A DNA stretch of 29,779 nucleotides from a virus. This document shows, in pieces, positions 1,511-28,054 of this stretch; position 1 is the stretch's first letter; every line of letters starts with the position of its first letter. The translations under genes were made by a program, and so were the position numbers. A model generated the notes under the pieces. The model ran no database searches. It was not told the DNA's origin and saw nothing but the letters and a program-made list of their open reading frames with translations. Location: the UHGV virus genome UHGV-1366609; one strand, 5' to 3'.

Positions 1511-1521
1511 AGGTCTTTCCT

Positions 1522-5731: not shown

Positions 5732-5732
5732 A

Positions 5733-6190
5733 TCAGTTTCCGTTAAATGCGATTGCTATCCCTTCCGCCGTCTTACTGGCGCGGGTCTGGGCGAAATATT
5801 CATCCAGCCACAGGGCGCGGGCGATGCTTTCTTCGTCGTCGTCTTCGTGCGGGAGGTAATAGCGGCGCAGGGCAAGGTATTGCTCAAGCGCATTCTTGCG
5901 AATGGCCGCCACCCGCGCCGTCAGTTTTTTACTTCGATCTCAAGTTTGGGGGAGTAAATCTCGTTCACCTTCTCGACGATCTGCATTTCGCAACCCGGAT
6001 AATCTTCCATCAGCTTGTTGAGCGACTCTTTACACTCGGCATCAACAATGCGGCCCAGATACGTCACCATAGGGGCAACCTTATTGGTCATGGTCATTTC
6101 GTTAAGCAGGTTGTTGAACGCGGTTTTATTCGGCTCAAAGCTCAGATTTACGCCCGCCACGGTCATGGCGATTTTTTTCGGTTTACTCAT
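5733..6190 (-). CDS. Tail assembly chaperone, -1 frameshifted fusion (GT/E+E'-like) product
   Basis: Hand translation of the -1 frame from the slip site gives a 61-codon stop-free extension LTARVAAIRKNALEQYLALRRYYLPHEDDDEESIARALWLDEYFAQTRASKTAEGIAIAFNGN, ending TGA at 5735..5733, one nucleotide before the tape-measure ATG (5731..5729). Confidence 0.65.
5921..6190 (-). CDS. Tail assembly chaperone, short (G/E-like) product
   Basis: 89 aa ORF ending ...SPKLEIEVKN; its last codons form the slippery heptamer A AAA AAC directly before the stop. Confidence 0.7.
   Translation of the reverse strand: MSKPKKIAMTVAGVNLSFEPNKTAFNNLLNEMTMTNKVAPMVTYLGRIVDAECKESLNKLMEDYPGCEMQIVEKVNEIYSPKLEIEVKN
5924..5930 (-). 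other. Programmed -1 ribosomal frameshift slippery heptamer A AAA AAC
   Basis: Minus-strand sequence gtA AAA AAC TGA at the end of the chaperone ORF; canonical X XXY YYZ heptamer in the zero frame. Confidence 0.65.
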
Positions 6191-6483
6191 TGTGCTAATT
6201 CCTTACGTTGTCGAATGTTGCCCACCAGGGCGTTATGTCGGGCGGCGCAGTCGGTATACATCTGCCGGTAGGCTGTCAGCGCCGCGTCAAAGTCATTTCC
6301 GGTCGGTCCGGCCAGACGTGGCAGCGTGACCGGGCAAAGTGTCAGCTGGTTTTCCTGATAATTCTCGTTCGGCTTGATCTGCACTTTCGTTGAACAACCG
6401 GACGTAATCATCAGAAGCGCAAAGGTTGCTAAAAACCGGCTTAATGATTTCTGTGCGGATTTCCCGTTCCGTGTGTCTTTCAT
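6187..6483 (-). CDS. Outer-membrane spanin (Rz1/LysC-like lipoprotein), overlapped arrangement
   Basis: 98 aa. Basic N-region, hydrophobic stretch FLATFALLMITSG then Cys (lipobox-like). Mature part is short, Pro-rich with extra Cys. Starts inside the i-spanin gene in another frame and extends past its stop. Confidence 0.6.
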   Translation of the reverse strand: MKDTRNGKSAQKSLSRFLATFALLMITSGCSTKVQIKPNENYQENQLTLCPVTLPRLAGPTGNDFDAALTAYRQMYTDCAARHNALVGNIRQRKELAQ

Positions 6484-6676
6484 TGGCTTTTAGCCCCGCA
6501 AGTTTTGCTTCCAGCGCTTCGCCAGACTTTTGCGTTACTTCAACGACAATCTGGCGCGTTTGTTCTGCCGCTTCACTGGCAGCGAGTTTCAGCTTTGCGT
6601 CGTGCCAGTCATGCGCCTGCCAGCCCGCTGACATTGCAGCGGCCAGAATCAGCAAAAGACCCAGCAGATTGCGCAT
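6293..6676 (-). CDS. Inner-membrane spanin (Rz/LysB-like)
   Basis: 127 aa. N-terminal transmembrane segment LLGLLLILAAAMSAGW followed by a charged, Ala/Glu/Lys-rich helical region. Confidence 0.6.
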   Translation of the reverse strand: MRNLLGLLLILAAAMSAGWQAHDWHDAKLKLAASEAAEQTRQIVVEVTQKSGEALEAKLAGLKANERHTEREIRTEIIKPVFSNLCASDDYVRLFNESADQAERELSGKPADTLPGHAATSGRTDRK

Positions 6677-7014
6677 CAGCGAACCCCGTTATGCTCAAGA
6701 CTGAAATGGTTGCCGTCCGGCTTACTGAAACGGCCACCCCACGATCCGCCGATAGATTCCCAGTATTCGCCCAGGGGGCGATATGCGGCGCTGTCGGTCT
6801 GGTATTCGCCGTTAATAAACAGGTTAAAATCCACCGCAAGGCGCTGGGTATGCAGGCTGTTAGTAATGCCGCTCCCTTTTTTTGCGTTAAGCGCGGCCTG
6901 TTCCGGCGTGCGGTACGCTTCGCCAAACGTCAGGCGATAGCCTTTTTCCTGGGCAAAATGAATCAGGCTGGCGATCATCACCGTAAAAAGTTGCTGTTTT
7001 TCACTCAGTTTCAT
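6676..7014 (-). CDS. Endolysin, zinc metallopeptidase of the M15/LAS type
   Basis: 112 aa. SLHTQRLAVDF (His...Asp) and C-terminal GNHFSLEH (His) match the H-x6-D ... H zinc-ligand pattern of small M15 endolysins. Flanked by holin and spanins. Confidence 0.65.
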   Translation of the reverse strand: MKLSEKQQLFTVMIASLIHFAQEKGYRLTFGEAYRTPEQAALNAKKGSGITNSLHTQRLAVDFNLFINGEYQTDSAAYRPLGEYWESIGGSWGGRFSKPDGNHFSLEHNGVR

Positions 7015-7312
7015 TGCGCTTGCTCCCCCATCGCTTGATATACATGTCCAGGCAGCGCTTTAGCCCCGCCTCAATAAACGCACTTCCCAGAATGCCCAGG
7101 GCGCAGGCCAGCCCAATGACGACCAGTTCCGGCATATCGGGGAATTTCAGCAGCGGGATTGCGGCCAGCGGTGCGACCGCAGATCCCAGAATCATCCGCC
7201 CGACCAGCAGACGGGTTGTGATTCGCTCATTGCTGACCATCAGTTGCCCCAGGCCAATCACGGCCCCGATAAGCAACAGCTTTTCAAGCAGTGACGTTTC
7301 TCCGTTCATCAT
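7001..7312 (-). CDS. Putative holin
   Basis: 103 aa with three hydrophobic segments and a charged C-terminal tail KRCLDMYIKRWGSKRNETE. Sits immediately upstream of the endolysin and overlaps it. Confidence 0.5.
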   Translation of the reverse strand: MMNGETSLLEKLLLIGAVIGLGQLMVSNERITTRLLVGRMILGSAVAPLAAIPLLKFPDMPELVVIGLACALGILGSAFIEAGLKRCLDMYIKRWGSKRNETE

Positions 7313-7316
7313 CGTG

Positions 7317-7772
7317 TCAGCCTTTCAAATCGCGAGTGTCGCGGGCTGACAGGTACGGCACGCCGTCAATCGCGACAAAGTCCGGGCTTGTCACCATGAA
7401 TTTAATTTTCTTCGTGGTTTTGCTGGCCTCGTTGGGGTTGATGTTGACGATGTCGGACAGCGTCGGAACGCAGCCAAACACCTCGATTTTTTCTTCGTCG
7501 TCCCCCGCATTGGCGTAGAACAAAAAGTCCTTTGCCGGAATGGCCCGCCAGGAACCTGCGGCGCGGGCCACGGCGGTAAACTTTTTAAAGTTCTGGGAAT
7601 CGACTTCGACTTCCACATCCGCCGAAACTGACCCTTTCGTGTGGCCGTTTGGGATGCCACGCGACTGCGCAACCGCGCTGTTATCCGTGATGGTGACGGT
7701 GGCGTTTTCGACGTGAATCATGATGGCGTCGTAGTTCACATCGAACGATCCGCCGCTGATACGTTCAGTCAT
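7317..7772 (-). CDS. Putative tail tube protein
   Basis: 151 aa ORF directly downstream of the sheath-sized gene and upstream of the chaperone/tape-measure block. No resemblance to P2 FII noticed. Confidence 0.5.
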   Translation of the reverse strand: MTERISGGSFDVNYDAIMIHVENATVTITDNSAVAQSRGIPNGHTKGSVSADVEVEVDSQNFKKFTAVARAAGSWRAIPAKDFLFYANAGDDEEKIEVFGCVPTLSDIVNINPNEASKTTKKIKFMVTSPDFVAIDGVPYLSARDTRDLKG

Positions 7773-7775
7773 TGA

Positions 7776-8918
7776 TTAGCTCTCCAGTGAGGTGTCCAGT
7801 TCGATGCTGACGCTGATTTCTTTCGCGCTCTCATACGGTCGAACCACAAGGTAAATCTGTACCGCTTCGCTACTGGTCCAGGTGATGGTGATGTCACCGT
7901 CTTTTGGCGGCTTCACTTCGCCCGGAAATTCGACGCCATTGATCTGGGTTGAAATCGCCATTTCACGCAGCGGCTTGCCGAAATAGGTTTCATGCGCGGC
8001 GATACTGCCCGGTGTGCTGTTCAGTGAACGATCGGCAATTTTTGGGATTGCACGCAGACGGACGCGGCGGGAGGCTTTATCAACCACGCGCACGTTTTCA
8101 ATCACCTGATAATCACCGCCTTCAACGTCCAGGGTGCGACCGTCGGCCCAGTAGATGCCGTCATAATCGTGATACCACATCGGCACGCTGTAGCGGTTCG
8201 CCTGCAAAGACTGCAGCACGGCCAGATCAATTTCGGCTCCCGTCCCGTCAACCGGCAGGCCGTCGCGTCCCAGCGCGGTGACTGCGCCGGTTGCAACGCG
8301 GGCGGGGCTGTCTGCCACCGTCACCGAACGGTTACACAAGCGACCGACCAGGACGCCGGGTTCATTGCCCCACAGACGCGGGACCAGTTGCACCCCAGGC
8401 GATGCAATACCGTCCTGGAGTGTTGCCAGGCGCGTCACATAGTCGCTCCACGCTTCGTCCTTTTCCGGCCCGCCCACAGCAAGGGCAAACCAGATAAAAC
8501 GCCCAAAACTGGCCTGTAAGGTGACGCGCATTTCCGTTGCCCGGTTAATGGTGGCCGCGTCGGCGGTATCAAATGCCAGGACAACCCCTTCGACGGATGC
8601 CACGCTCTGGGCCTGTTTGACCGCGTTCATCCAGTCCTCGTCTGGTTTGTAGCCCTCGGCTCCCTTGTCTGGCTCTGCCAGCACATGCACGTAAGCAAAC
8701 CAGTTCTGACCCGCGTTATTGGCCGCTGCGGCCACCATATTTTTTAACGGGCTGTCTTTGTCGCCCAGGGCTTTATCCAGATCGCTGCCGGTATTCAGCG
8801 ACTGGGTTTTCCCGATGTTAGTGTCGCCGTAACCCACAAAGAGGATGACGCGCTCGACGTCGTTCGTTGTGCCGTTGAAGCGGTTTTTCTGACTGACGTT
8901 GACATTCGTCCAGGTCAT
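7776..8918 (-). CDS. Putative contractile tail sheath protein
   Basis: 380 aa ORF in sheath-then-tube order, following the S-like completion gene. Sequence does not resemble P2 FI as I recall it, so the assignment rests on size and position. Confidence 0.5.
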   Translation of the reverse strand: MTWTNVNVSQKNRFNGTTNDVERVILFVGYGDTNIGKTQSLNTGSDLDKALGDKDSPLKNMVAAAANNAGQNWFAYVHVLAEPDKGAEGYKPDEDWMNAVKQAQSVASVEGVVLAFDTADAATINRATEMRVTLQASFGRFIWFALAVGGPEKDEAWSDYVTRLATLQDGIASPGVQLVPRLWGNEPGVLVGRLCNRSVTVADSPARVATGAVTALGRDGLPVDGTGAEIDLAVLQSLQANRYSVPMWYHDYDGIYWADGRTLDVEGGDYQVIENVRVVDKASRRVRLRAIPKIADRSLNSTPGSIAAHETYFGKPLREMAISTQINGVEFPGEVKPPKDGDITITWTSSEAVQIYLVVRPYESAKEISVSIELDTSLES

Positions 8919-8920
8919 TT

Positions 8921-9616
8921 TTACCCCCTGATTTGCTGCGCGTTGACGTCCCAGCCGAAGCCGATTGCCTGCATTTGCCGCGCAATAATTTGGTTAAATT
9001 CCTCGTTGCTCACCCCCAGAAAAACGCGCCCAGGAATATCAATGGTCCATGTGCGTTTTGAGGGTGTGCCTTTCAGTTTTCGAATCAGTAATCCCGCCTG
9101 GGCCATGCTCATGGTTTCCATGATTTGCCTGCTGGACGGTTTAACCCAGCGCTTGCCCTTGCGGGTTTTGTAGCCCAGCGCCCGCAGGCGCTTGGCCTGT
9201 CTCGGTAGCGCGGGCTTGTCAGCCTGCGGCTTGCGCGGGGCGTTACTGGCTTTCATCTGGATCCGTGCGCCATCCTGCTGGACCGCACCGACCAGACCCG
9301 CCGCAATGGGCTTCGTCCCGTTCCGGTAGTTCCCGCCCTTGAGGTAAATTCTTACCCCCTGAATCTCCGGCATTTCACGCACGGCCAGTAGCTTGGGCAG
9401 CCCTTTTAACATCTTCCCTTTGCCACGCTTGCGCGGCTCCCACGGCGTACCGTCCGGGGCCGCCTGCTGGCGCTGGTGACGTTTTGCCGCTGTGACAATG
9501 CCCAGCTTTGCAATACGCCATAAAAGGCGCTGGCGCTTGCGCGGGGGAAGGTCAGCTTTTGCCAGCGTTTCCCGCATCTGCTTTAGCTGTTGCTGGTTCA
9601 GTTCCCCACGGATCAC
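8921..9616 (-). CDS. Virion morphogenesis / tail completion protein (P2 gpS / Mu G-like)
   Basis: 231 aa, very basic. Block QQAAPDGTPWEPRKRGKGKML resembles the PDGxxWxP signature I associate with the gpS family. Confidence 0.55.
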   Translation of the reverse strand: MIRGELNQQQLKQMRETLAKADLPPRKRQRLLWRIAKLGIVTAAKRHQRQQAAPDGTPWEPRKRGKGKMLKGLPKLLAVREMPEIQGVRIYLKGGNYRNGTKPIAAGLVGAVQQDGARIQMKASNAPRKPQADKPALPRQAKRLRALGYKTRKGKRWVKPSSRQIMETMSMAQAGLLIRKLKGTPSKRTWTIDIPGRVFLGVSNEEFNQIIARQMQAIGFGWDVNAQQIRG

Positions 9617-10089
9617 GACGCGTCACCACGCTGGACAATAAATTCCAGTTGCGACGCCTCCCAGATTTCGGGGTTTACGATGTCCCATTTCTTACCTTTG
9701 AAGGGGATCGGCCCTTTTTCCACTTCACGCAGGACCAGCGGATCAACCAGCGGGACAACCACATCCAGAATGCATGACCCTTCGTCGTCGAACTCCGGGT
9801 CCACGGTGGGATCGGCTAACTTCAGCTCGTCGCGCAGCTCGTTGGCGAACTCATCCACCCAGGCCAGCACCAGGGCATAAATCAGCCCCGGCGAATATTT
9901 GCGGTAGGGGAAGTCATCCCACGACAAACGGGCGGTATAAGTCAGCACCCCGATCCGGCGCTGGTTGTTTCCCATCGCTTTGGCGCTGCGTACCAGCTCG
10001 CAATCCTCCATTGAACTGGAAAACATCTGCATGGCATCAGGCGGCAGGTTTGCCGTAATAAACGCCGTCAGGCTTTCAAGCTGGCTCAT
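9613..10089 (-). CDS. Head-tail joining / tail completion protein (R-position), function uncertain
   Basis: 158 aa acidic ORF, ATGA-coupled between the L-like and S-like genes. No specific motif recognised. Confidence 0.35.
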   Translation of the reverse strand: MSQLESLTAFITANLPPDAMQMFSSSMEDCELVRSAKAMGNNQRRIGVLTYTARLSWDDFPYRKYSPGLIYALVLAWVDEFANELRDELKLADPTVDPEFDDEGSCILDVVVPLVDPLVLREVEKGPIPFKGKKWDIVNPEIWEASQLEFIVQRGDAS

Positions 10090-10559
10090 ATCAGATGCAC
10101 CCCCACGCGTGGTTGTCGCAGCATGTTTCGCATCACGTTGGCCGCCTCGGCCAGCAGGCTGGCGCGGGTGTCCTGGCTTTCCTGCCCCGGATGCGATTCA
10201 CGTCGCCCGATGGTGGCAAACTCCCCCAGCAAATCGGCCTTTGCGCGGGCGTAGACCGCTTTTTTGTACTGGGCTGTTAACTGGGTTTCATCGCCCATCT
10301 TTGCACCCGGTACATCTGCGGCCCGCTCGCAGGCTTTCGCGTTCCAGTACGTCACCACGTCGGCCAGCGCGTCGTTTACCTCCGCAATAGCGGCCAGCAG
10401 GGCCACGCCCGCGGTTTCTGGCGGCAGATCAGCGGGCAACGTGCGCACCTTCTGAAACTCGGCCAGATCGAGATCGGGCCAGAATGTCACGCCGTTGGTG
10501 ATCGCTGTTGGCGTCACCGTCACCGGCTTACCGCTGATACTGAAACTTGGGCCACTCAT
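10086..10559 (-). CDS. L: Head completion/stabilisation protein (P2 gpL-like)
   Basis: Start placed at ATG 10559..10557 (MSGPSFSISGK...) with GAGGTG 7 nt upstream; the longer track ORF would run through the intergenic palindrome. Position directly after the M gene; contains QYKKAVYARAKADLLGEF. Confidence 0.55.
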   Translation of the reverse strand: MSGPSFSISGKPVTVTPTAITNGVTFWPDLDLAEFQKVRTLPADLPPETAGVALLAAIAEVNDALADVVTYWNAKACERAADVPGAKMGDETQLTAQYKKAVYARAKADLLGEFATIGRRESHPGQESQDTRASLLAEAANVMRNMLRQPRVGVHLI

Positions 10560-10610
10560 TGACACACCTCGGTTTTGCAATAGAAACGGGCTAACGGGTT
10601 CCACGGCCAA

Positions 10611-10624
10611 CAACCATATGGTTG
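10611..10624. promoter_or_regulatory. Perfect 14-bp palindrome CAACCATATGGTTG in the M-L intergenic gap
   Basis: Read directly; identical to its reverse complement. Followed by a small GC hairpin TCCCG-GCTTG-CGGGA at 10643..10657. Confidence 0.4.
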
Positions 10625-10661
10625 ATGCCTCCCCCGCGCCCGTCCCGGCTTGCGGGAGTCG

Positions 10662-11366
10662 TTAAAGCTGGGTCAGGCCGTTAATCCGGGCGCGGATTTT
10701 TTCGCGCATGGTCTTAACTCCGACGCTTTTGTTGTACGCCGCCGCCTGGGCCAGAAGGGCGTCGGCCTGTTCCAGCGTATTCACATCATCCACGGCAGTG
10801 GCACGCGGCTGCCCCTTCTCGTCGCGCAGCAGATAAAGACCGGCGAACTTGAACCACTTCGCGTTAATGTCTTCGTGCAAACGCCACTTTTCGCGGATGT
10901 TTTCAAACGTGCGGCTGAAATAGGGTTCGATGCTGTGACCGGCTTCCGCCTGCATGATCGCCCACTCCAGCACCGTGTCGGCCACAAAGGCGGGCAGGTT
11001 GCTTTTGAAGTTCTCCGGCGTGGCCTGGCTCTCACTGATAGCCACGTCTGCCCAGTCCAGCGCCTTGCCCATTTCCCCCGTATCGAACAACCAGATCACG
11101 CAGTAAACCAGGGCCGGATTGGCAAAGCGGGCATCACCGGCGAGGTATGCTTCAACGGTCGGCATCCAGCGCGGCAGAAGAACATCGCGCTTCAGTTCGA
11201 TGCGGTCTTCCGTGCGCTGTACGCTGCGAAGCATTGCGACATCTTTTTCCAGTTCCAGCTTTTGCAGGTGGAAGCTGACCGGCGACGCGGTCAGGGCTTC
11301 GCGGTTATCCAGCGCCTTTGCGGCTTTCACGCGTGCTCGGTGTCGTTGACACAGGGTCATAGCCAT
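10662..11366 (-). CDS. M: Terminase small (endonuclease) subunit, P2 gpM-like
   Basis: 234 aa, directly downstream of the major capsid gene in the O-N-M-L order. Confidence 0.7.
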   Translation of the reverse strand: MAMTLCQRHRARVKAAKALDNREALTASPVSFHLQKLELEKDVAMLRSVQRTEDRIELKRDVLLPRWMPTVEAYLAGDARFANPALVYCVIWLFDTGEMGKALDWADVAISESQATPENFKSNLPAFVADTVLEWAIMQAEAGHSIEPYFSRTFENIREKWRLHEDINAKWFKFAGLYLLRDEKGQPRATAVDDVNTLEQADALLAQAAAYNKSVGVKTMREKIRARINGLTQL

Positions 11367-11368
11367 TT

Positions 11369-12400
11369 TTACGCGCCTCCCTCCGGTGCTACCGGATCGG
11401 CTGCAAGGGTGATCTTGTCGAACGCTGCATACAGCTCGTCATGCTCGACGGCGTAACCTTCCATGCGCAGATAGTTGTTTTCAAACTGCTTGCGGTCGTC
11501 GCTCCAGTCGGCTTTACGCTTACGGGTTCCCGACTGCGTATAAATATGCAGGTTGCTCAGGGTGGTAATGATGAGGCGACCTTCTGGCATAAATGGCGGG
11601 GTGTACACCTGCTTGCCAGCAATCTGACGGTTCATCAGCTGCGCCGCGACTTTTTCAGTTGGACGGTCAACCATATTCATCATGGTTGTGGCGTCCATCC
11701 CAATCAGGTCACCGGAAATCAGAACGCAGAGGTTCGGGTCATTGCGGTAATGCTCCAGAATGCAGGTATGCAGCAGGTCAGTGACTGCCGCATCCAGCGA
11801 CACATAATCTGCGCCTGCACCGCCCAGCGTGACCTTATCGGTGATGATTTGGCCTGGCGTACGCGTTTTGACGATCTGGTGCCAGCCGATGTTAACGTCT
11901 TCGCCATTTGGGTTGTTTTCCGGGTCGGTAGTCTCGGCAACACTCACGCCGTTAAACGCCACGCGCAGCATATCCAGCGCAAATTGCTCATTGCTGAATG
12001 CCTGAATCAGCTGGAAGAATTCATCTTCACTGCCGGAGTTTGCCCAGTTGGTCAGCGTGTCATAGTCCAGGAAGGAACCGGAATCCGTTTCCGCGAGAGC
12101 GTAAGTATTACCGCTGACGCCCAGGGAACGGGAAAAACGGCCGCCTTTCTTACGCCCGGTATAAATACCCGGCTTGCCGGTACTGATAACCTGGCCGGTG
12201 GTCTGCTGGACATCTTTCACATTCACCAGGCGCAGGAATTCGGAAGACTCCAGCAGCGCCTGACGCAGCAAGGTTTCTTTCGGTGGCGTGATAGCAAACA
12301 TCTTTGAGGTGTCGCGCACGCCATAAGATTTAGCCAGGGCTGCGGTAAAACTTTGCAGCATTCCCTCGGCGCGGGCTGATAGTTGTTGCGTATGATGCAT
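11369..12400 (-). CDS. N: Major capsid protein, P2 gpN-like
   Basis: 343 aa. C-terminal region GGAGADYVSLDAAVTDLL...LITTLSNLHIY...RMEGYAVEHDEL parallels the P2 gpN C-terminus as I recall it. Confidence 0.8.
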   Translation of the reverse strand: MHHTQQLSARAEGMLQSFTAALAKSYGVRDTSKMFAITPPKETLLRQALLESSEFLRLVNVKDVQQTTGQVISTGKPGIYTGRKKGGRFSRSLGVSGNTYALAETDSGSFLDYDTLTNWANSGSEDEFFQLIQAFSNEQFALDMLRVAFNGVSVAETTDPENNPNGEDVNIGWHQIVKTRTPGQIITDKVTLGGAGADYVSLDAAVTDLLHTCILEHYRNDPNLCVLISGDLIGMDATTMMNMVDRPTEKVAAQLMNRQIAGKQVYTPPFMPEGRLIITTLSNLHIYTQSGTRKRKADWSDDRKQFENNYLRMEGYAVEHDELYAAFDKITLAADPVAPEGGA

Positions 12401-12423
12401 TTTATTTTCCTTAAAACAGGCGC

Positions 12424-13485
12424 TTAAACTAATTCACGCGGTTTTTTGTCGCCCGCTGGCGCATTACCAGGACGACGCGTTCCGTTACTTTCCATCGCTG
12501 ACAACTTGGTCATGACGGTGGTCAGTTGTTCGGACAGGTCGTTCAGCGGGTTACCGGCCTGACGCCCTGCGGAAAGCTCACGGCGGCGGCTGCGGGTACG
12601 CTGACGACGTGCCGGGGCTGCGCTGAATTTTTTCATCGCTTTTGCCAGGTTGGCTTTGGCGACGCTGAATTCTTCCGCTTTGACTTCGTCTTCCGGGTTC
12701 TCTGCAACTTCCTCCGCCAGATCTGCCACTTCGGCGGCAGCGTCTGCGATTTCGTCAGCAATGACGGCCACTTCGTCGGCGGCCTGTTCCGGCGTATCAA
12801 CTTTTTCAGCGTCACCCGCTGCGGCGTCTTTACCGCTTTTAACTAAATCCAGTAATTGCTGGATGAGGGCTTTTAACTCTTCCATTTTTTCTCCGTCGCC
12901 CTCGGTGGGCTTATCAGTGTTTGGCTCTGGCGTTGGCGTAAAATCTTTACTGGCCGAAAATAAACGCGACCAGAAAGAATCTTTTTTATCCGGTTTACTT
13001 GTCTGTAATTTTCCCAAGCTGAATGTTTCCAGACTCCCGCGCTCGGCGTCCTTTTCTTCACCGGCTAAAACGAATTTAAGTTTTTCCGTTCCCAGACTTG
13101 CCGGAATATCAGTCACGGCCAGCCCGAAAAGATATTCACGACCGCTTCCTGCAAAATCAGTGACAAACTCGGCTGACGTAAATAACTTTTGCCCCATACG
13201 GTTGGCATCAATTAAAAATTGATTCGGGATTAACTGGGCATATAACTTCGTGACGTCACCTTCCGTTTCCACTTTCAGCGCGTCCACTTCACCCAGGTTG
13301 CAGGTAAATTCACGCTCGCCGATATCGTATTGCGGGTGGTGCGGCCAAATCATGGCGGTGTAGGTTTTGCGGGAGTAGGTTTCTGCCGCATCAATCAACC
13401 ATTGCGGTTCAATGGTGCGACCGTCCACAGCCTGTCCAGATGTGGCAATACATAGCCAATCCGTGCGGTAATGAGATTGCGGCAT
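12424..13485 (-). CDS. O: Capsid scaffolding protein, P2 gpO-like
   Basis: 353 aa. N-terminal blocks AVDGRTIEPQWLIDAAETY and YLFGLAVTDIPASLGTEKLKF match P2 gpO motifs as recalled; acidic coiled-coil-like C-terminal half. Confidence 0.8.
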   Translation of the reverse strand: MPQSHYRTDWLCIATSGQAVDGRTIEPQWLIDAAETYSRKTYTAMIWPHHPQYDIGEREFTCNLGEVDALKVETEGDVTKLYAQLIPNQFLIDANRMGQKLFTSAEFVTDFAGSGREYLFGLAVTDIPASLGTEKLKFVLAGEEKDAERGSLETFSLGKLQTSKPDKKDSFWSRLFSASKDFTPTPEPNTDKPTEGDGEKMEELKALIQQLLDLVKSGKDAAAGDAEKVDTPEQAADEVAVIADEIADAAAEVADLAEEVAENPEDEVKAEEFSVAKANLAKAMKKFSAAPARRQRTRSRRRELSAGRQAGNPLNDLSEQLTTVMTKLSAMESNGTRRPGNAPAGDKKPRELV

Positions 13486-13662: not shown

Positions 13663-15474
13663 ATGGCTAAATATTCCGATGAATTAAAAGAAGCGGCCCG
13701 CACGCTTTATATAAAAAGCTGGTCGCCGAAAGATATTGCGCAGGAACTGAATATTCCACCGCGTACAATTTACCACTGGGCTGACGTCGGGAAGTGGGCA
13801 TCACTGCTGCCTGTCGAATCGGTGGAAAATGTCATCGCCCGCCGTATCGACCAGCTCACCCGCCGCGAGAAAAAAACATCGCTGGAACTGGAGGAACTGC
13901 GCGATCTGATTGCTCACCATGTGAAACTCATGGCGCAGCGCAACAAGCACGCCGAAAAGCTGGCAGAAATTCAGGCCCAGAAAGCGGCTTATGATGGTGA
14001 AGGGTACTGCCTCAGCAGCGCAGGCGGGGAACCAGGGGAAAGAAAGCGCCGGTATAAGAAAAACGACGTTTCCGGTATTACAGCGGAAATGCTCGACACC
14101 TGGGCGCGGGAACATCTCTTCGAGTACCAGTTGCACTGTCGCGAACATAAAGGCGAAGACTGGCGCTTCATTCTGAAAAGCCGACAGGTCGGCATGACCT
14201 ATTATTTCGCCTGGGAGGCATTCGAAGATGCTGTCATTACCGGCGATAACCAGGTCTTTTTCTCTGCAAGCCGCTCCCAGTCTGAAATCTTCCGTGAATA
14301 CATCGTCCAGATCGCCCAGAACCATTTCGACGTGACGCTGACGGGTAAAAATATCCGCCTCAGCAACGGCGCAATACTGCGCTTTTTGTCCACGAACGCC
14401 AGCACCGCGCAGGGCTTTAACGGCCACCTGTATGGCGATGAGGTTTTCTGGATCCCGAAATTCACGCGCCTGCACGAAGTTGCCAGCGCAATGGCAACGC
14501 ATAACAAATACCGAACGACCTACTTTTCGACGCCCAGCGCGAAAACGCACCAGGCTTACCCGGTATGGACTGGCGAAGCCTGGCGCGGGGACGACCCGAA
14601 ACGCAAAGGTGTGAAGTTCCCGAACGACAGCGAAATGCGCCAGGGTATTCTTTGCCCGGACCAGATCTGGCGCTACATCATCACGATGGAAGACGCTATC
14701 GAAGGTGGCCTCGGTGCGCTTGTCGATATTGAACGGCTGCGCAACAAATACAGCCCGACCGCGTTCGCCATGCTCTACATGTGCCAGTTTGTTGACAGTA
14801 AGGACGCGGTGTTCAAGTTCTCCGCGCTTGTCGGCTGCGAAGTGGACCGGGCCACATGGGGCGACTTTGATCTGACCGCTGCGCGGCCCTTCGGCAATCG
14901 CGAAGTATGGGCAGGCTTTGACCCGTCACGATCCGGCGACAACTCCACCTTTGTTTTAATCGCGCCCCCCATAGAGGACGGCGAGCGCTTCCGCGTGCTG
15001 GCCGTCTGGCAATGGCAGGGCTTTAACTTCAGTTGGCAGGCCGACCAGATAAAGCAACTTATGCGCCGCTTTAACATCACTTACATCGGGATCGATACAA
15101 CCGGCATTGGTAAGGGCGTTTATGACCTGGTCAGCAAGTTTGCACCGCGCGAAGCCACACCCATTCTTTACAGCGTCGAAAGCAAAAACCGTCTGGTAAT
15201 GAAGATGATCGACGTTGTCGAGCGTAAACGCATCGAATGGGCAAAAGATGCCGTAGACGAAACGAACAAAGAGCGCGTCGAAATTCCGGCCAGCTTTATG
15301 GCTATCCGGCGCACGACAACCAACAGCGGCAACGCGCTGACGTTTGTTGCCGAACGTTCAGACGCGACCGGCCATGCAGATGTTTTCTTCGCTATCTCGC
15401 ACGCCGTAATTAACGAACCTATCGATCACGAATATGACCGCCCATCGGGCTGGTACTTTGGGAAAGCAGCATGA
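13663..15474 (+). CDS. P: Terminase large (ATPase) subunit, P2 gpP-like
   Basis: 603 aa, divergent from O as in P2; stop overlaps the portal start (ATGA). Confidence 0.85.
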   Translation: MAKYSDELKEAARTLYIKSWSPKDIAQELNIPPRTIYHWADVGKWASLLPVESVENVIARRIDQLTRREKKTSLELEELRDLIAHHVKLMAQRNKHAEKLAEIQAQKAAYDGEGYCLSSAGGEPGERKRRYKKNDVSGITAEMLDTWAREHLFEYQLHCREHKGEDWRFILKSRQVGMTYYFAWEAFEDAVITGDNQVFFSASRSQSEIFREYIVQIAQNHFDVTLTGKNIRLSNGAILRFLSTNASTAQGFNGHLYGDEVFWIPKFTRLHEVASAMATHNKYRTTYFSTPSAKTHQAYPVWTGEAWRGDDPKRKGVKFPNDSEMRQGILCPDQIWRYIITMEDAIEGGLGALVDIERLRNKYSPTAFAMLYMCQFVDSKDAVFKFSALVGCEVDRATWGDFDLTAARPFGNREVWAGFDPSRSGDNSTFVLIAPPIEDGERFRVLAVWQWQGFNFSWQADQIKQLMRRFNITYIGIDTTGIGKGVYDLVSKFAPREATPILYSVESKNRLVMKMIDVVERKRIEWAKDAVDETNKERVEIPASFMAIRRTTTNSGNALTFVAERSDATGHADVFFAISHAVINEPIDHEYDRPSGWYFGKAA

Positions 15475-16532
15475 CAAAGAAACAGCGTAATAATAAAAAA
15501 TTCAGGTCCATGACCGGCAGCAAGGTTGAAACCTTCACGCCAGGGCGCGGAAGCGTGATCACATTTGGCGAACCCGAACCCATCCTTACGACCGGCACTG
15601 ATTATCACAATATCTGGTATGACAATGAATATGACCACTGGCGACTCCCGATTGATCGCCTGGCGCTGGCCCAGTTGCCGAACCTTAACGGCCAGCACGG
15701 TGGGGTACTGTATGCGCGGCGCAATATGGTAGCAGGTGGCTACATCGGCGGCGGCCTGACGCCTGATCAGGTCGAACAGGCTGTCTTTGATTACCTGCTG
15801 TTTGGTGACGTTGCTATCCTGAAAATTCGTAACGTATTCGGGGAAGTGATCGACCTGCTGCCGCTGCCGTCACTGTATCTGCGCTGCCGGAAAGACGGCT
15901 CTTTTGCTGTTCTGCAGGAAGGGCCGGCGCTTATCTATGACCCGGAAGACATCGTCTTCTTTAAAATGTACGACCCGCGCCAGCAGGTTTACGGCCTGCC
16001 GGACTATATCGGCGGGATTCATTCGGCCTTACTTAACAGCGAAGCAACCATCTTCCGACGCCGCTATTACAACAACGGGGCGCATATGGGCTTTATCCTC
16101 TATACCAGCGATCCAAACCTCACGCTGGAAATGGAGAACGAGATTAAAGATAAAATTGCTCAGTCAAAAGGCCTGGGCAACTTCCGCAATATGTTTATCA
16201 ACATCCCCAAAGGCGACCCGGACGGGGTCAAAATCTTGCCTGTGGGTGAAGTGAGCGCGAAAGATGAATTCGCCAGCATTAAGGGAATCACCGCGCAGGA
16301 TATTTTTACCGCGCACCGCTTCCCCGCAGGGCTTGCGGGCATCATCCCGACCAACGGCGCGATAATGGGCGACCCTGAAAAGGCCCGCGCGACCTATCGG
16401 AAAGATGAAGTTATCCCGTTGCAGCGCAAACTAATGCAGGGCGTGAACAACGACCCGGAGATCCCGCCGCACCTGCACCTGAAATTTGAGATTGAAACAC
16501 CGGTAAACAGCGCCGAAAAGGGCGAAAAATGA
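15471..16532 (+). CDS. Q: Portal protein, P2 gpQ-like
   Basis: 353 aa, immediately downstream of and coupled to the terminase large subunit; size and position as P2 gpQ. Confidence 0.85.
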   Translation: MTKKQRNNKKFRSMTGSKVETFTPGRGSVITFGEPEPILTTGTDYHNIWYDNEYDHWRLPIDRLALAQLPNLNGQHGGVLYARRNMVAGGYIGGGLTPDQVEQAVFDYLLFGDVAILKIRNVFGEVIDLLPLPSLYLRCRKDGSFAVLQEGPALIYDPEDIVFFKMYDPRQQVYGLPDYIGGIHSALLNSEATIFRRRYYNNGAHMGFILYTSDPNLTLEMENEIKDKIAQSKGLGNFRNMFINIPKGDPDGVKILPVGEVSAKDEFASIKGITAQDIFTAHRFPAGLAGIIPTNGAIMGDPEKARATYRKDEVIPLQRKLMQGVNNDPEIPPHLHLKFEIETPVNSAEKGEK

Positions 16533-16855
16533 ACGAGATTAAGTTAAAATCATCCCTATTGTTAGCAATGGCGTGCGGGATGGTGAACATGCGAGTTTTT
16601 AAAATTAAATGTCCTGAATGCGGCTCACCGGCCATCATTCGCAAATCTGACTGGAAAGACAAAAAACTGGCTGATTTATACTGCGCCTGCACGGAAGTTG
16701 AATGCGGCCACACCTTTGTTTTTAACGCCCAGTTTTCACATACCCTCAGCCCCAGCGGGCTGACCGGCAACAAGCTGGTTAAATTCCTGATTGACCGACT
16801 CAAGCCGGAAGAACGTCAATTCGCGCTGGACCTGCTCAACGGCCAGACGGCATAA
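16529..16855 (+). CDS. ogr: Ogr/Delta-family zinc-finger late transcription activator
   Basis: CPEC-x22-C-x4-C-GHTF matches the P2 Ogr pattern CPLC-x22-C-x4-C-SATF; downstream SPSG echoes Ogr PLPSG. True start may be the internal Met (MRVFKIKCPEC, about 16589). Confidence 0.7.
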   Translation: MNEIKLKSSLLLAMACGMVNMRVFKIKCPECGSPAIIRKSDWKDKKLADLYCACTEVECGHTFVFNAQFSHTLSPSGLTGNKLVKFLIDRLKPEERQFALDLLNGQTA

Positions 16856-23952: not shown

Positions 23953-24021
23953 CATTATATAAACATTACATTTTCACTATTTGTTACCAGGATAGTGATC
24001 TGACTGTTGGAGGGTTTTCTT

Positions 24022-25032
24022 ATGTCCGTTAAGAAACTCGAAGATGGTCGCTATGAAGTGGATGTCAGGCCGCGCGGGCGCGACGGAAAGCGCATACGGC
24101 GGAAGTTTGAGAGAAAGGCGGATGCACACGCATTTGAGCGCAGCATCATCGCTAAGTATCAGAACCATGATTTTTTAAATAGACCGGCCGATAAGCGGAA
24201 ACTAAGCGAATTTATTGCTTTATGGTGGCAGTTAATCGGACGGAATAAGAGCTACGCAAACCGCAGGCTTAGTGCAGTTAACTGCATTTGCCAGGATATG
24301 GGGGATCCCATGATTTACCAGATTGATGCGCGATGTCTTATTGATTACCGGGCATATAGGCTGGAGCAAGGGATCAAGGCTTCAACGATAAATCATGACC
24401 TGTTTGCACTTAGTGGTGTGTTTAAAGCTATGGCCGAAATTGATGAGTTTCACGGTGAAAACCCAGTAACAGCAATTTCAGCGCTGAAAGAGCCAAAAAC
24501 GGAAATGTCGTATTTCACTGAGTCGGAAGTAAACCGGCTGTTATCCCTGTGCTCAGGTGATTACTACCGCATCGCCGTTCTGCTGCTTGCTACTGGTGCT
24601 CGATGGGGGGAAGCCTACCAGCTTAAAGCGGAAAACATTGTCGGTAACAGGGTGATGTTTACAATCACTAAAAACGGAGATCGGCGGGTGGTCCCCATAT
24701 CTGACGACATTGCAAAGATAGTGAAACATCAGGAATCGGGAAGGCTGTTCCGCGTGAGCTATAAAACCTTCCGTCTACGCATGAAAGAAGCAAAGCCCAA
24801 TCTTCCAGATGGGCAAGCCGCGCACGCGCTACGTCATACGTTCGCCACGCACTTCATGATTAAGGGCGGAAATATTATCGCGTTACAACGAATTCTTGGT
24901 CATTCCGATATATCTCAGACGATGACCTATGCTCACTTCGCACCGGACTATTTACTGGATGCGGTGAGTTATAATCCCCTTAGTGGAATGTCCACATTGT
25001 GTCCACACTCTGGAGGCAATGCGGGGGTTTAG
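24022..25032 (+). CDS. int: Tyrosine integrase, P2 Int-like
   Basis: Start at ATG 24022 (MSVKKLEDGRYEVDVRP...) with GGAGGG 7 nt upstream. LATGARWGEA, HALRHTFATHF and LGHSDISQTMTYAHF carry the R...HxxR...Y catalytic pattern and are near-collinear with P2 Int. Confidence 0.9.
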   Translation: MSVKKLEDGRYEVDVRPRGRDGKRIRRKFERKADAHAFERSIIAKYQNHDFLNRPADKRKLSEFIALWWQLIGRNKSYANRRLSAVNCICQDMGDPMIYQIDARCLIDYRAYRLEQGIKASTINHDLFALSGVFKAMAEIDEFHGENPVTAISALKEPKTEMSYFTESEVNRLLSLCSGDYYRIAVLLLATGARWGEAYQLKAENIVGNRVMFTITKNGDRRVVPISDDIAKIVKHQESGRLFRVSYKTFRLRMKEAKPNLPDGQAAHALRHTFATHFMIKGGNIIALQRILGHSDISQTMTYAHFAPDYLLDAVSYNPLSGMSTLCPHSGGNAGV

Positions 25033-25199: not shown

Positions 25200-25212
25200 A
25201 TACAAAGACAAA

Positions 25213-25238
25213 GCCTCGCCACCCGCGGGGCTTTTTTT
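25213..25238 (+). terminator. GC-rich hairpin followed by T7 run (terminator-like; possibly part of the att region)
   Basis: GCCTCGCCACCCGCGGGGC followed by TTTTTTT; the stem is imperfect. Confidence 0.4.
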
Positions 25239-25310
25239 CTTTTACTGAATGCTAGTAATCGTTAGACTTCATGTGACAAAAAATAACCTTTCGACAAGGA
25301 GTGTTTTTAA

Positions 25311-25820
25311 ATGGCAATGACAAAATGTAAAGAGTGCAAAAAAGAGGTATCAGCAAAGGCTAAGACTTGCCCTCATTGTGGAGTAAAGGATCCTGGCTTT
25401 AGCGCCAAAGATGCAATGGGTGGTTTTGTTTTTCTGTTAATCCTTGGGGCAATTGGGTACTGGTATTTCAGTGGTGATGAAGAGGCAACGGCCAAAGATG
25501 AGCCAAAAGTTAAGGTGTGTGCTAAGAATGATGGGCAGTGTATTTTTGAAGCCCATTTAGTTGATGCTTTGGTAGCCTGTAAAAGCCCGATTGAGAAAAC
25601 TTCAAAGTATGATTTCGAATGGACCAATGGTGCATTTGAAAATATCTTTAGTCGGTACATCAACAAACCGGAACAGAACCAGATTGTTTATGTGGGCGAT
25701 AAGCTGAAATTTACGAATGGGTTTAACGCCAAAGTGAACATGACGTATTCATGCACCCTTGACACAAAAACAAACAAAATGATCGATTATGAAGTGACTA
25801 AAGGGCGCTTGCCCGATTGA
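25311..25820 (+). CDS. AT-rich cargo (moron) gene: zinc-ribbon, single transmembrane helix, Cys-containing C-terminal domain; function unknown
   Basis: 169 aa. CKEC-x10-CPHC ribbon, hydrophobic GGFVFLLILGAIGYWYF, then about 115 aa with four Cys. Own AAGGAG 9 nt upstream of the ATG; composition visibly AT-richer than neighbouring phage genes. Confidence 0.6.
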   Translation: MAMTKCKECKKEVSAKAKTCPHCGVKDPGFSAKDAMGGFVFLLILGAIGYWYFSGDEEATAKDEPKVKVCAKNDGQCIFEAHLVDALVACKSPIEKTSKYDFEWTNGAFENIFSRYINKPEQNQIVYVGDKLKFTNGFNAKVNMTYSCTLDTKTNKMIDYEVTKGRLPD

Positions 25821-26013
25821 TCCTTCCTCGCATTATTTTGCAAAAACTATAGCTGCATCATTTCTCCCCAAAGCCTTGCCGCGCAAGGCTTCACGCATTT
25901 TTCAACGAAACTTTCCAGCCTACCGCCGACCACATTTGATCGTGACGGAATCTAAAACGATCCTTTTAAAAACATCATGTTATCCAGTCGGTTAGCGACT
26001 GGCGGCGCGGTGA

Positions 26014-26125
26014 CTTTTGCAAAGTGCTGCAAATCTTTGCGCAGCGTGCAAACGCCCGCAGGATGCAAAAGCCCAGCAGCGGCGCAGGCTGGCGGGGGGC
26101 TTTGCACAAAATTTCTTTTGCAAAA
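26014..26125. repeat. Array of TGCAAA half-sites including two palindromes TTTTGCAAA(G/A) about 100 bp apart, in a 510-bp non-coding gap
   Basis: CTTTTGCAAAG at 26014..26024 and CTTTTGCAAAA at 26115..26125, plus TGCAAA at about 26028, 26048, 26064 and TTTGCACAAAA at 26101. Confidence 0.4.
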
Positions 26126-26329
26126 TTTTTATGATCCAAACTGCGCAGGCGGGTGCGGTGTAGCGCCGTTTCCGTCCTGGATCCGCTTCCGTCTGCCTGC
26201 TGTCGCTTGCGCTGTGGGTCGCTGTTGAACGAACGAAAGAAAGGCCGCACGGTGGCGACCTTTAATGTTTGCGCCTGCTGTGGCGCGTTCTGTGGTGTCT
26301 GGTGAGGTGTGCGGTTATACCGCTTTTTG

Positions 26330-28054
26330 TCAGGCTATCAGGGGACCGTATTTGCTTTTTAATGTGCCGGTTTTAGTGGCCGTTGCGGTGAACTGTGCAG
26401 CCTGCCCGCTGGCCCCTGTATTGGGGTGAGTATGTGACGCGGCAGTCTCTGCCAGCTCCCTCACCACGTCCAGGGTGTCGGTGAGTAGTGTCAGGACGTT
26501 AATCTCTTCGCTTCCCAGTTTTACCACCGGGGCAATCAGTTGTTGCGCCTGGGCCACACTTCGGCGGATGCCGCTGATTTTTTCAGTCAGTGCGCCGCTG
26601 ACGTTTGACGTAACATTCCCTTTCACGTCGTCTGTAACATCGCCCGCGACGTCCCGTTTTACGTTCCGGCCAACACTGACGGAATTGTCCTTGCTGCAGG
26701 TTACTGTCAGGTTGCCGGATGTGCCGATACTGTAATCACCCTCGCTGATATGGACCACCGCCCCGGCCAGAAGTGTGGCCGTGCCAAGCACGGTTGTTTT
26801 ATCCGTTGCCTGGACCGTAGTTTCACGGACAACCACTTTGCGGATCTCTTCGTCGGTGGTGACTTCGCGCATCATGGAGTTTTCGCGGATTGTCTGGTCC
26901 GTCTGGCGTTCCCAGTCTCCGGCAACCGTCACGCGCTGCGATACACCATCGCGCTGTTGCTGCAACTGCTCGCCGGGTTTAACCGCTGGCAGGTTATGAC
27001 CCTCCGCCATAATCTGGCGCACAAAGGGCTTATCCTGCCGCCCCTCAGTGAACCCAATTTCAACCAGCGTGCCAGGGGGCGGAAACTGGAACATTCCCGA
27101 CTCGCTGCCCGCCATTGGCACAGGTAGCGGAACGGCAGAATAAACCGGCGTATTTGCGGCTGGCTTGCCGTCTTCGTCAAGCAGCTGGAGATCCACGGCG
27201 TAGCGCGGGCGGAATGGATCGGCAATATCCCCCCCGGAAACATCCTCGCTTGGTGCTTCCACCCTGGCGAACTTTGGAAGATGCAGGCCGCTTGCCAGCT
27301 CCGGGAATGCGTTTTCAATCTGCCGCTGAATTGGTGATTTTTGCAATGGCTGGCCGTTGGCTTTGTTGCGGGGCTGCCATGTGATTGCCATGTCGTCGTT
27401 ATTTAGCCGAACCTGGTTCAGCCGCTGGCCGTTCACTTCCGCACCCGGTCGCAGGCTCTGAATCATTGGCACAACCATTGAATTTCCGCCTGCCGATTCC
27501 TGGCTAAATTCATGCGGGATCTCCACTGGTTTACCCGCAAAAAGACTGTGCTCCGCAGCGCCGACGAAGACATCCCCGTCCGGCAGCTGATACCAAAGAT
27601 AATCCGTCACTGAAAATGCACGGCCCAGACTGGCAAGAAGCTGATAGCCCGTGCCGCTGTGCGTAAAGTGGGGGATTGGTTTATCTGCATAAGCAGCGCC
27701 GACCGGCGTTGTGACGGTAAGCCCGCTTTGCTCACTTATCCAGTCAGTAATCTGGCGCAGCGTTGGATGCTGGAAAGAACACGGCCACAATTTGTCAAAG
27801 ATGCCAACCAGCTCACGCACGAATAATCGGCATGTTCCATTATCAGCAGGCTGTGACCGTTCAACGTACCCGGTAAACCAGCGCAGGACCAGACCATCAT
27901 AGCCAACATCGATCCGCACCATCTTGCCGGTGTAATCTGTCTCTGTCCCTGCCGTAATAAACCCCCGACCGCACGCGTTCAGCTCCAGCACGATATTGCA
28001 GTCAATCAGATGGACCGGATCAGAGGAAAGGTACAGGCGTTTAATTGGTTTCAT
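26330..28054 (-). CDS. Baseplate central hub/spike protein (gpV/gp5-like OB-fold and His-rich apex fused to a long N-terminal domain)
   Basis: 574 aa. MFQFPPPGTLVEIGFTEGRQDKPFV resembles the gpV/gp5 OB-fold core; C-terminal ASHTHPNTGASG resembles the HxH spike-apex motif of P2 gpV. The first about 330 aa are hub-sized. Confidence 0.55.
   Translation of the reverse strand: MKPIKRLYLSSDPVHLIDCNIVLELNACGRGFITAGTETDYTGKMVRIDVGYDGLVLRWFTGYVERSQPADNGTCRLFVRELVGIFDKLWPCSFQHPTLRQITDWISEQSGLTVTTPVGAAYADKPIPHFTHSGTGYQLLASLGRAFSVTDYLWYQLPDGDVFVGAAEHSLFAGKPVEIPHEFSQESAGGNSMVVPMIQSLRPGAEVNGQRLNQVRLNNDDMAITWQPRNKANGQPLQKSPIQRQIENAFPELASGLHLPKFARVEAPSEDVSGGDIADPFRPRYAVDLQLLDEDGKPAANTPVYSAVPLPVPMAGSESGMFQFPPPGTLVEIGFTEGRQDKPFVRQIMAEGHNLPAVKPGEQLQQQRDGVSQRVTVAGDWERQTDQTIRENSMMREVTTDEEIRKVVVRETTVQATDKTTVLGTATLLAGAVVHISEGDYSIGTSGNLTVTCSKDNSVSVGRNVKRDVAGDVTDDVKGNVTSNVSGALTEKISGIRRSVAQAQQLIAPVVKLGSEEINVLTLLTDTLDVVRELAETAASHTHPNTGASGQAAQFTATATKTGTLKSKYGPLIA

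Follow-up and report, generated by a model that had tools for sequence, protein, structure and literature searches.

A probable HP1-type cos region in an Irrigatiovirus-like phage genome, and two alternative versions of its repeats among relatives

What is the function of the long non-coding gap that, in the phage genome UHGV-1366609, separates the last gene of the late tail operon from a small cargo gene? The window, i.e., the whole stretch of 29,779 nucleotides analyzed here, is a near-complete, circularly permuted genome of an HP1-like, Irrigatiovirus-like member of the Peduoviridae, and the gap (25821-26329) carries palindromes and TGCAAA motifs in numbers that had already attracted attention. 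A first-pass annotation, made from the letters alone, had taken them for a protein-binding array and had offered a regulatory site, a part of the arm of the phage attachment site (attP) or a small RNA locus as possible explanations. We consider, with a probability of about 85%, that the gap is instead a cohesive-end packaging (cos) region of the HP1 type, whose repeats would serve as recognition elements for the terminase.

Repeats and a GC-rich core in the gap

Both self-complementary elements of the first-pass annotation are present, at 26014-26024 (CTTTTGCAAAG) and 26115-26125 (CTTTTGCAAAA). The exactly self-complementary portion of the former is TTTGCAAA (26016-26023) and the latter contains a perfect 10-bp palindrome, TTTTGCAAAA, at 26116-26125. 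A third palindrome, again TTTTGCAAAA, lies at 25836-25845 and was absent from the earlier list. The annotation had also counted at least four more TGCAAA motifs, and four half-sites are indeed found (26028, 26047 and 26064 on the + strand, 26101 on the - strand), along with a degenerate TTTGCG at 26036; the three palindromes and four half-sites span ~290 bp. The motif TTTGCAAA occurs three times in the window, each time in the gap. The motif excess takes the form of clustering, as the whole-window count of TGCAAA (37 vs 33.9 expected) shows no over-representation, but 10 of the 37 occurrences (both strands) fall within 300 bp. The highest number reached in 1000 dinucleotide shuffles of the window was 6, and none of 2000 shuffles of the gap attained either 10 TGCAAA or three TTTGCAAA.

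What the first-pass annotation overlooked, and what turned out to be the key to the region, is an invariant GC-rich core, GCAGGCGGGTGCGGTGTAGCGCC, 20 bp to the right of the second palindrome. The gap had been called GC-rich for a phage gap, which holds only in part: its GC content (53.0%) is about that of the window (53.7%) and hence not unusual for this genome, and the right two-thirds reach 57.5%. Small proteins were also considered as occupants of the gap (a 54-aa gp25 is annotated in Salmonella phage SI7, and open reading frames of 91 and 83 aa are seen in the window) and rejected. Neither strand scores better than the other in comparisons with relatives, and the 91- and 83-aa frames are broken by 1-nt and 7-nt indels among relatives that are ~90-96% identical in the gap, in agreement with the earlier view that these two frames are non-coding.

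Position of the gap and ends of related genomes

In HP1-type phages, cos lies between the last late (tail/baseplate, orf35-type) gene and attP/int, away from the portal gene (PMC2771037). The gap occupies precisely this position, i.e., after an orf35-type gene, before attP/int and away from the portal, and the window encodes the P2-type terminase subunits gpM and gpP and the portal gpQ, as expected for a cos of this type. The HP1 record reads orf32 (tail-fibre assembly), orf33, orf34, orf35, 192 bp, cosR|cosL, attP, int, and the window reads tail-fibre assembly, 247 aa, 180 aa, 574 aa, ~170 bp, core, array, cargo, int, with the first four of these genes forming the end of the tail operon on the - strand. 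The 574-aa protein is 42% identical to HP1 orf35 (E = 2e-157) and the 180-aa protein 45% to orf34, and a terminator likewise follows orf35 in HP1.

The ends of public records point to the same place. In at least 13 records of HP1-like phages (among them HP1, HP2, F108, phiO18P, K139, Kappa, VPUSM8, Pmp6, ESSI-2 and ESSI2_ev015/129/239), an orf35 homologue was located by tblastn 96-311 bp from the record end. The ESSI-2 record starts with GCGGGTGCGGTGTAGTGCC and finishes with GCAGGCGGGTGCGGTGTAG, which amounts to a 15-nt terminal repeat, GCGGGTGCGGTGTAG, identical to window positions 26149-26163, and the SW5 record begins with GCGGTGTAGCGCC and finishes with GCAGGCGGGTGC (...GGGTGC). The contigs of ev015, ev129 and ev239 break off within the 23-bp core, directly against Nextera adapters. 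These records, which stem from virion-derived relatives, all end within sequence identical or near-identical to 26145-26167. A further anomaly is seen in the records of SI7 (L001, ~4222) and SW3 (L013, ~230), both of which are without GGTGTAG, the equivalent of window positions 26157-26163. The heptamer is missing in none of 120 relatives from the IMG/VR database (exact in 110, with 1-2 substitutions in nine and a 1-nt insertion in one) and is intact in all seven aligned sequences in prophage context (six from E. coli prophages, one from the record of Yersinia phage 324); its loss in SI7 and SW3 is probably an assembly artefact at physical genome ends. We conclude from these termini that the terminase would cleave within GCGGGTGCGGTGTAG. 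The 15-nt direct terminal repeat of ESSI-2 fits filled-in 5' overhangs, and the other assemblies differ from it by a few nucleotides.

The public records of ESSI2_ev015, ev129 and ev239 carry the Nextera adapter (AGATGTGTATAAGAGACAG / CTGTCTCTTATACACATCT) at their termini, and that of ev239 opens with a chimeric stretch of ~110 nt.

Two versions of the repeat array

The nearest phages are the Salmonella phages SI7, SW3 and SW5 (Irrigatiovirus), with ~90% identity over the gap and 94-96% over the 574-aa gene, and 19 E. coli genomes contain similar prophages. Only a core of ~110 bp is common to the window, Yersinia phage vB_YenM_324 and prophages that are more distant. In every relative the invariant core is found 150-250 bp beyond the stop of a 560-580-aa baseplate gene (in the Yersinia phage, beyond one extra gene), and it precedes variable cargo genes and the prophage end. 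Prophages with the array occupy five chromosomal sites, namely yegQ, serS, tRNA-Ile, mntR and ybjL.

In a nine-sequence alignment, TGCAAA/TTTGCA of the window has its counterpart, in the same columns of the distant relatives, in TGAAAA/TTTTCA. When IMG/VR was scanned with a pattern for the core, 120 loci with 114 distinct flanks were obtained, and these fall into two versions. C-type arrays (14 sequences including the window) have 6-9 TGCAA and no TGAAA, and in A-type arrays (~100 sequences) TGAAA is present 2-8 times and TGCAA once at most. An aberrant left flank marks the three A-type sequences with the lowest counts. When sites were scored by position in 12 C-type and 98 A-type distinct sequences, the 10-bp bins at -310, -130, -120, -100 and -30 from the core were common to both classes, with an additional bin at -110 in A-type sequences and one at -50 in half of the C-type. 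A site at -30 was scored in 100% of the C-type sequences and, in the form CTGAAAAA, in 97% of the A-type ones, and HP1 has one about equally far from its end. Spacers have diverged among the C-type sequences and the sites have been retained. The array is therefore kept at fixed positions in 114 distinct relatives while its spacers diverge, and it switches between its two versions in concert, all of which bears out the earlier suggestion of a protein-binding array.

A few IMG/VR loci (L073, L066 and L065) combine the invariant core with a different left flank, without the standard four-site block, and may represent further array variants.

The main repeat block has its first four TGCA/TGCG cores spaced 9-10 bp apart. 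Its positional equivalent in A-type relatives is TGAAAA-N5-TGAAAT-N2-TTTTCA-N4-TTTCAG, and it also matches in position the three phased TGAAA repeats of the HP1 left end, which lie ~115-150 bp from the end, with two more at ~40-55 bp. Given that the HP1 left end has the A-type arrangement, the array is an ancestral part of this type of cos; TGAAA is the ancestral form, and the lineage of the window has switched the repeat core from TGAA/TTCA to the palindromic TGCA.

A second repeat family lies on the tail-gene side of the core, with two copies of consensus CCG[T/C]TTCCGTC (CCGTTTCCGTC and CCGCTTCCGTC). Its counterparts in HP1 are CACGGAAA(A/T) repeats that run up to the right end. The tail-side motif varies independently of the array type on the left, i.e., both its copy number and its sequence change independently of the TGCAA/TGAAA array. 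At least seven TTACG(T/C)-type repeats are seen on the tail side in the E. coli O22:H8 prophage at serS (L004, ~4150-4330), compared to two TTCCGTC in the window.

The remaining parts of the region are conserved as well. In the GC-rich spacer between the main block and the proximal sites, part of the left half of the core recurs as a direct repeat (GCGCAGGCTGGCGGGG vs GCGCAGGCGGGTGCGG). The motif GATCCA(A/G)A adjoins the core in 120 of 120 IMG/VR loci (the scan pattern included it) and in every aligned relative. On the cargo side, the perfect hairpin has an equivalent at the same alignment columns in relatives; it failed a simple terminator scan owing to its weak T-run, and may act as a terminator or insulator.

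Association of the array with the packaging genes

Array type was compared with terminase type by pairing cos loci with small-terminase loci on the same IMG/VR contigs. The identity of gpM to that of the window is 77-98% in eight paired C-type contigs, 66% in the C-type prophage of E. coli O22 (EcO22) and 52-58% in all A-type phages. Such identities are, by themselves, confounded by phylogeny, and they become informative only once a mosaic contig, 2619619249_3 (IMG/VR 2619619249_000003; L094/L165), is added. This contig has a C-type array and its P, Q and M proteins are 91%, 87% and 85% identical to those of the window, whereas its genes by cos (574 aa 56%, 180 aa 55%, 247 aa 37%, J 59% and I 44%) are no closer than those of A-type phages, and its ogr is 52% identical, the same as in A-type phages. 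A recombination boundary must lie near cos on one side. EcO22 shows this pattern in milder form, with P at 76%, Q at 75% and M at 66%, versus 52-66% in A-types, and with values close to those of A-types for the 574-aa gene (66% vs 63-65%) and for A (39% vs 41-42%). The large terminase subunit P thus also co-segregates with the array type.

Both versions of the array occur in prophages of E. coli, which implies that the partner of the repeats is phage-encoded. The array version tracks the terminase, portal and head genes and not the adjoining tail genes, as would be predicted if the repeats were read by the terminase, and this is their most likely function. Going one step further, and at slightly less than even odds, we postulate that one group of enterobacterial HP1-like phages has two mutually exclusive packaging specificities. 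These would be set by a single-base difference in the repeat core (TGCA in place of TGAA/TTCA), seen at the six or seven best-conserved sites flanking cos, and by a matching, co-inherited terminase. If true, cos and terminase would form an orthogonal pair of natural origin, comparable to lambda versus phage 21, and cross-packaging between co-resident prophages would be prevented. The readout could also be achieved by an N-terminal helix-turn-helix (HTH) of the large subunit instead of by the small subunit.

The first ~62 residues of the large terminase (13663-13850) form a Terminase_5 (gpP-like) domain with a weak homeodomain-like match (HTH_23). DNA recognition might reside in this N-terminal domain, i.e., in the large and not in the small subunit.

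Taken together, packaging might proceed as follows. The terminase (gpM small and gpP large subunit) would recognize the cos region on concatemeric DNA and introduce staggered nicks inside the core, the cohesive-end sequence being contained within its 15-nt central part. The TTTGCAAA/TGCAAA sites at ~-310, -130 to -100, -50 and -30 would position the terminase in a lineage-specific manner, functionally like lambda cosB, with the two copies of the second short repeat flanking the core on the other side. The terminator of the tail operon would shield cos from transcription on one side, and the cargo-side hairpin may do the same on the other.

Several points weigh against this interpretation. The binding of terminase to TGCAAA is deduced from sequence comparisons. 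The co-segregation is based on a single strong mosaic, supported by one divergent C-type prophage (EcO22), and the residues that discriminate C- from A-type proteins are spread at similar density over M, P, Q, N and L and are uninformative as to whether gpM or gpP is the repeat reader. The ends of the window are deduced from those of relatives, SW5 (~89% identity in the left part of the gap, 96% in the core and the gene next to it) and ESSI-2 (~63% protein identity), and these termini disagree to the nucleotide, with a 15-nt overlap in ESSI-2, a 2-nt overlap in SW5, gaps of 3-8 nt in ev015/ev129 and the 7-nt deletion in SI7/SW3. Some of them could be assembly artefacts and not true ends. Finally, the likeness to HP1 cos is one of motifs and architecture only, without alignable homology.

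Alternative explanations

The region could be cos and its TGCAAA/TGAAAA repeats could still be bound by a DNA-bending host protein (IHF, Fis or HU-like) instead of the terminase. Lambda cosB does require an IHF site between its R sequences (PMC4669245). The first four sites in the window are phased at ~10 bp on one face of the helix, with A/T-rich flanks. However, prophages of a single host species, E. coli, include both repeat versions, no concerted change at all seven sites would be required by a host factor, and the version follows the phage packaging module in both the mosaic contig and EcO22. Neither TGCAAA nor TGAAAA matches what we take to be the IHF consensus, WATCAANNNNTTR. A bending protein is thus disfavored and, in our opinion, unlikely as the reader of the repeats, although it could have an accessory role. 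Considerably less probable still, in our view, is that the repeats merely lie beside cos and serve as operators, through which a transcription factor of the phage (Ogr, C, Cox or CII-like) would control the cargo gene or read-through from the late operon. Palindromic sites of 8-10 bp are typical of dimeric regulators, and the array does have a variable cargo slot on one side and the terminus of the late operon on the other, but no sigma-70-like promoter was found in 25200-26500 (1.3 expected), and cargo identity and orientation differ among relatives while the array is constant. Moreover, Ogr in the C-type mosaic is at the A-type level, A and the switch regions do not follow the array type (C and Int are uninformative), and HP1 has the same repeats just inside its physical left end. 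The array version follows the packaging genes rather than Ogr, A or neighbouring genes, which argues against a gene-regulatory site.

The two other proposals of the first-pass annotation fared no better. A small or structured RNA would be in keeping with a long conserved non-coding stretch between convergent genes with a hairpin at each end, yet Rfam 15 gave no match at the gathering score for the whole window and none at E <= 1 for 25700-26450, the folding energy of 26060-26200 equals that of shuffles (z = 0.32), and no sigma-70-like promoter site for such an RNA was found. Conservation resides in the short repeats and in the GC core at record ends and not in paired stems, and we rate an RNA locus as very improbable, marginally below even the operator array. 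The least credible explanation, to which we attach next to no weight, is that the repeats are arm-type sites for integrase or excisionase at attP. The gap is 0.8-1.1 kb from int, and in HP1 attP begins 250 bp from cos, but cargo separates the array from the att end (a 510-bp gene here, 0.5 to ~3 kb in relatives). The same array is found at five integration sites, with the integrases of three compared relatives only 35-50% identical to that of the window, and the int/attP module of the window differs from that of SI7 while their arrays are ~90% identical. The array is thus neither contiguous with the recombination core nor co-varying with the integrase, as arm-type sites would be.

A cos of P2 type was also tried as a candidate and rejected. 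In the window the portal gene is directly followed by an ogr-like gene, a terminator and a convergent gene, leaving no room for it, a BLAST search of the P2 cosR/cosL junction against the window returned chance matches only, and no 19-nt GGCGAGGCGGGGAAAGCAC-like ends were found beside Q.

Genome context

Genes were assigned by PHROG and Pfam scans of the window, and the coordinates of all features are collected in Table 1. Relative to P2, where ogr is by attP and cos by Q, the two features have in effect swapped places in this genome. A scan for tRNA and tmRNA genes found none. The spacer between int and the cargo gene contains, at 25210-25234, a terminator-like hairpin, AAAGCCTCGCCACCCGCGGGGCTTT, followed by a T-run. 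This could plausibly be an attP core that originated from the 3' end of a gene or RNA of the host; the search for an attB of the window phage returned partial arm-like matches only.

Table 1 Features of the window and of related loci discussed in the text
Feature	Position	Strand	Remarks
Late tail and head genes	1-13485	-	PHROG/Pfam
Small terminase subunit, P2 gpM family	10662-11366	-	PF05944, phrog_74; candidate repeat reader
Large terminase subunit P, P2 gpP family	13663-15474	+	PF03237, PF17289, PF06056; expected core-cutting nuclease, alternative repeat reader
Portal Q	15471-16532	+	phrog_68
Ogr/Delta zinc-finger gene	16529-16855	+	Directly after portal; then strong terminator and convergent methyltransferase gene
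Replication gene A, then C repressor	Between methyltransferase gene and int
int	24007-25032
int-to-cargo spacer	After int		278 bp; probably holds attP
Zinc-ribbon cargo gene, 169 aa	25311-25820		510 bp; hydrophobic, possibly membrane-spanning stretch (by eye)
Gap	25821-26329		Between convergent genes
Distal repeat site TTTTGCAAAA	25836-25845		~-310 from core; bin occupied in 12/12 distinct C-type; TGAAA/TTTCA in 66% of A-type
Perfect 9-bp hairpin AAGCCTTGC-CGC-GCAAGGCTT	25871-25891	+	Inverted repeat; cargo-gene side
Main repeat block	26015-26069		TTTTGCAAA 26015, TGCAAA 26028, TTTGCG 26036, TGCAAA 26047, TGCAAA 26064
Conserved GC-rich spacer CCCAGCAGCGGCGCAGGCTGGCGGGG	26072-26097		GGCGCGG-N-CTGGCGG kept in nine-sequence alignment and IMG/VR set
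Proximal repeat sites	26101-26125		TTTGCA 26101 (~-50), TTTTGCAAAA 26116 (~-30)
Conserved AT-rich linker TTTTTATGATCCAAAC	26126-26141		Between -30 site and core
Invariant putative cos core GCAGGCGGGTGCGGTGTAGCGCC	26145-26167		cosN-like; single occurrence in window; contains GCGGGTGCGGTGTAG (26149-26163)
Direct repeats CCGTTTCCGTC and CCGCTTCCGTC	26166-26193		17 bp apart; tail-gene side of core
Intrinsic terminator ending late tail operon	26240-26263	-	9-pair stem then CTTTCGTTCG (terminator scan)
Baseplate protein, 574 aa, HP1 orf35 homologue	26330-28054	-	phrog_2258; stop at 26330; last gene before putative cos
Cargo slot, window and relatives	Window 25311-25820; L002 3846-4811; L004 2497-3582; L009 4478-5596; L010 3496-5629; L008 1793-5766
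Adapter stretches in ESSI2_ev015, ev129 and ev239 records	L019 1-48; L218 1-43; L219 last ~50 nt; L221 last ~85 nt

Variable cargo occupies the position between cos and att, in relatives AbiH, three Hok/Gef genes, PIN-domain proteins and other proteins of unknown nature, and this slot looks like an accessory or defence hotspot of HP1-like enterobacterial prophages. Bounded as it is on one side by the conserved putative cos, it can be easily located in genomes. In E. coli Combat13F7 (L008), a remnant of ~10 kb between mntR and mntS has lost the head genes and all tail genes other than the baseplate gene, but retains cargo, cos region, fil, cII, CI and int; it may have arisen by simple deletion or may still be packageable by a helper.

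Comparison with known packaging systems

Placing cos in the Irrigatiovirus/Seongnamvirus/Quadragintavirus/Tresduoquattuorvirus group fills a gap in annotation, as all eight inspected phage records annotate no cos, and several public records are permuted, adapter-bearing or without 7 nt exactly at this place. The group also offers a natural experiment, with 114 sequences, two exclusive repeat versions and one sequence that breaks the linkage with neighbouring genes, and lends itself to following the co-evolution of P2-type terminases and cos recognition. To our knowledge, the DNA-recognition elements of these terminases are poorly defined.

The closest match among known systems is HP1 cos (also that of HP2, K139, F108 and phiO18P), which, like the region described here, lies after an orf35-type gene and a terminator and before attP/int, in phages with P2-type terminase genes. 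The cleavage region is pyrimidine/purine-asymmetric in both, the att-side repeats (TGAAA-type in HP1) form a phased block ~115-150 bp away with further sites ~40-55 bp away, and ACGGAAA-type repeats are found on the tail side. In contrast to HP1, the window has TGCAA and not TGAAA repeats and a variable cargo slot inserted between cos and attP, and its core cannot be aligned with the HP1 ends. The HP1 record gives its cohesive end a length of 9 nt, compared to the up to 15 nt that ESSI-2 suggests for the type seen in the window; a length of 7 nt was reportedly given for HP1 by Fitzmaurice et al. in 1984. ESSI-2 and the ESSI2_ev phages (Seongnamvirus, Quadragintavirus, Evevirus) share the flanking architecture and gene order with the window, and the ESSI-2 termini its 15 nt, but they have A-type (TGAAA) repeats and a head/packaging module that is only 52-62% identical. 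No cos annotation is present in the ESSI-2 record or in the inspected end stretches of the ESSI2_ev records.

The cos regions of P2, 186 and P4 belong to the same virus family and are served by the same terminase families, and the right end of P2 resembles the window in that its G-rich cohesive-end region has several motifs containing TGCA(T/A) to one side (seen in the sequence). They differ in location and ends, since P2 cos, with its 19-nt ends, is by the portal gene Q, where the window has ogr and a terminator.

In cos regions of lambda type, the nicking site is flanked by short repeated sites for the small terminase subunit (TerS) in mixed orientation, and between lambda and phage 21 the differing R sequences of cosB match differing TerS recognition helices, which gives packaging specificity (PMC4669245). 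The window likewise has several short repeats beside a presumed nicking site, in versions that would be matched to their own terminase, but the likeness is functional only. Its TerS is of the gpM type (PF05944) and not gpNu1, its repeats extend over ~310 bp compared to ~120 bp, no IHF site was identified in it and there is no sequence relationship. A cos with flanking terminase repeats is a well-known kind of element, previously unannotated in this phage group, and the concerted switch from TGAA to TGCA, linked to the terminase module, would be an example of the evolution of packaging specificity and not a new kind of system.

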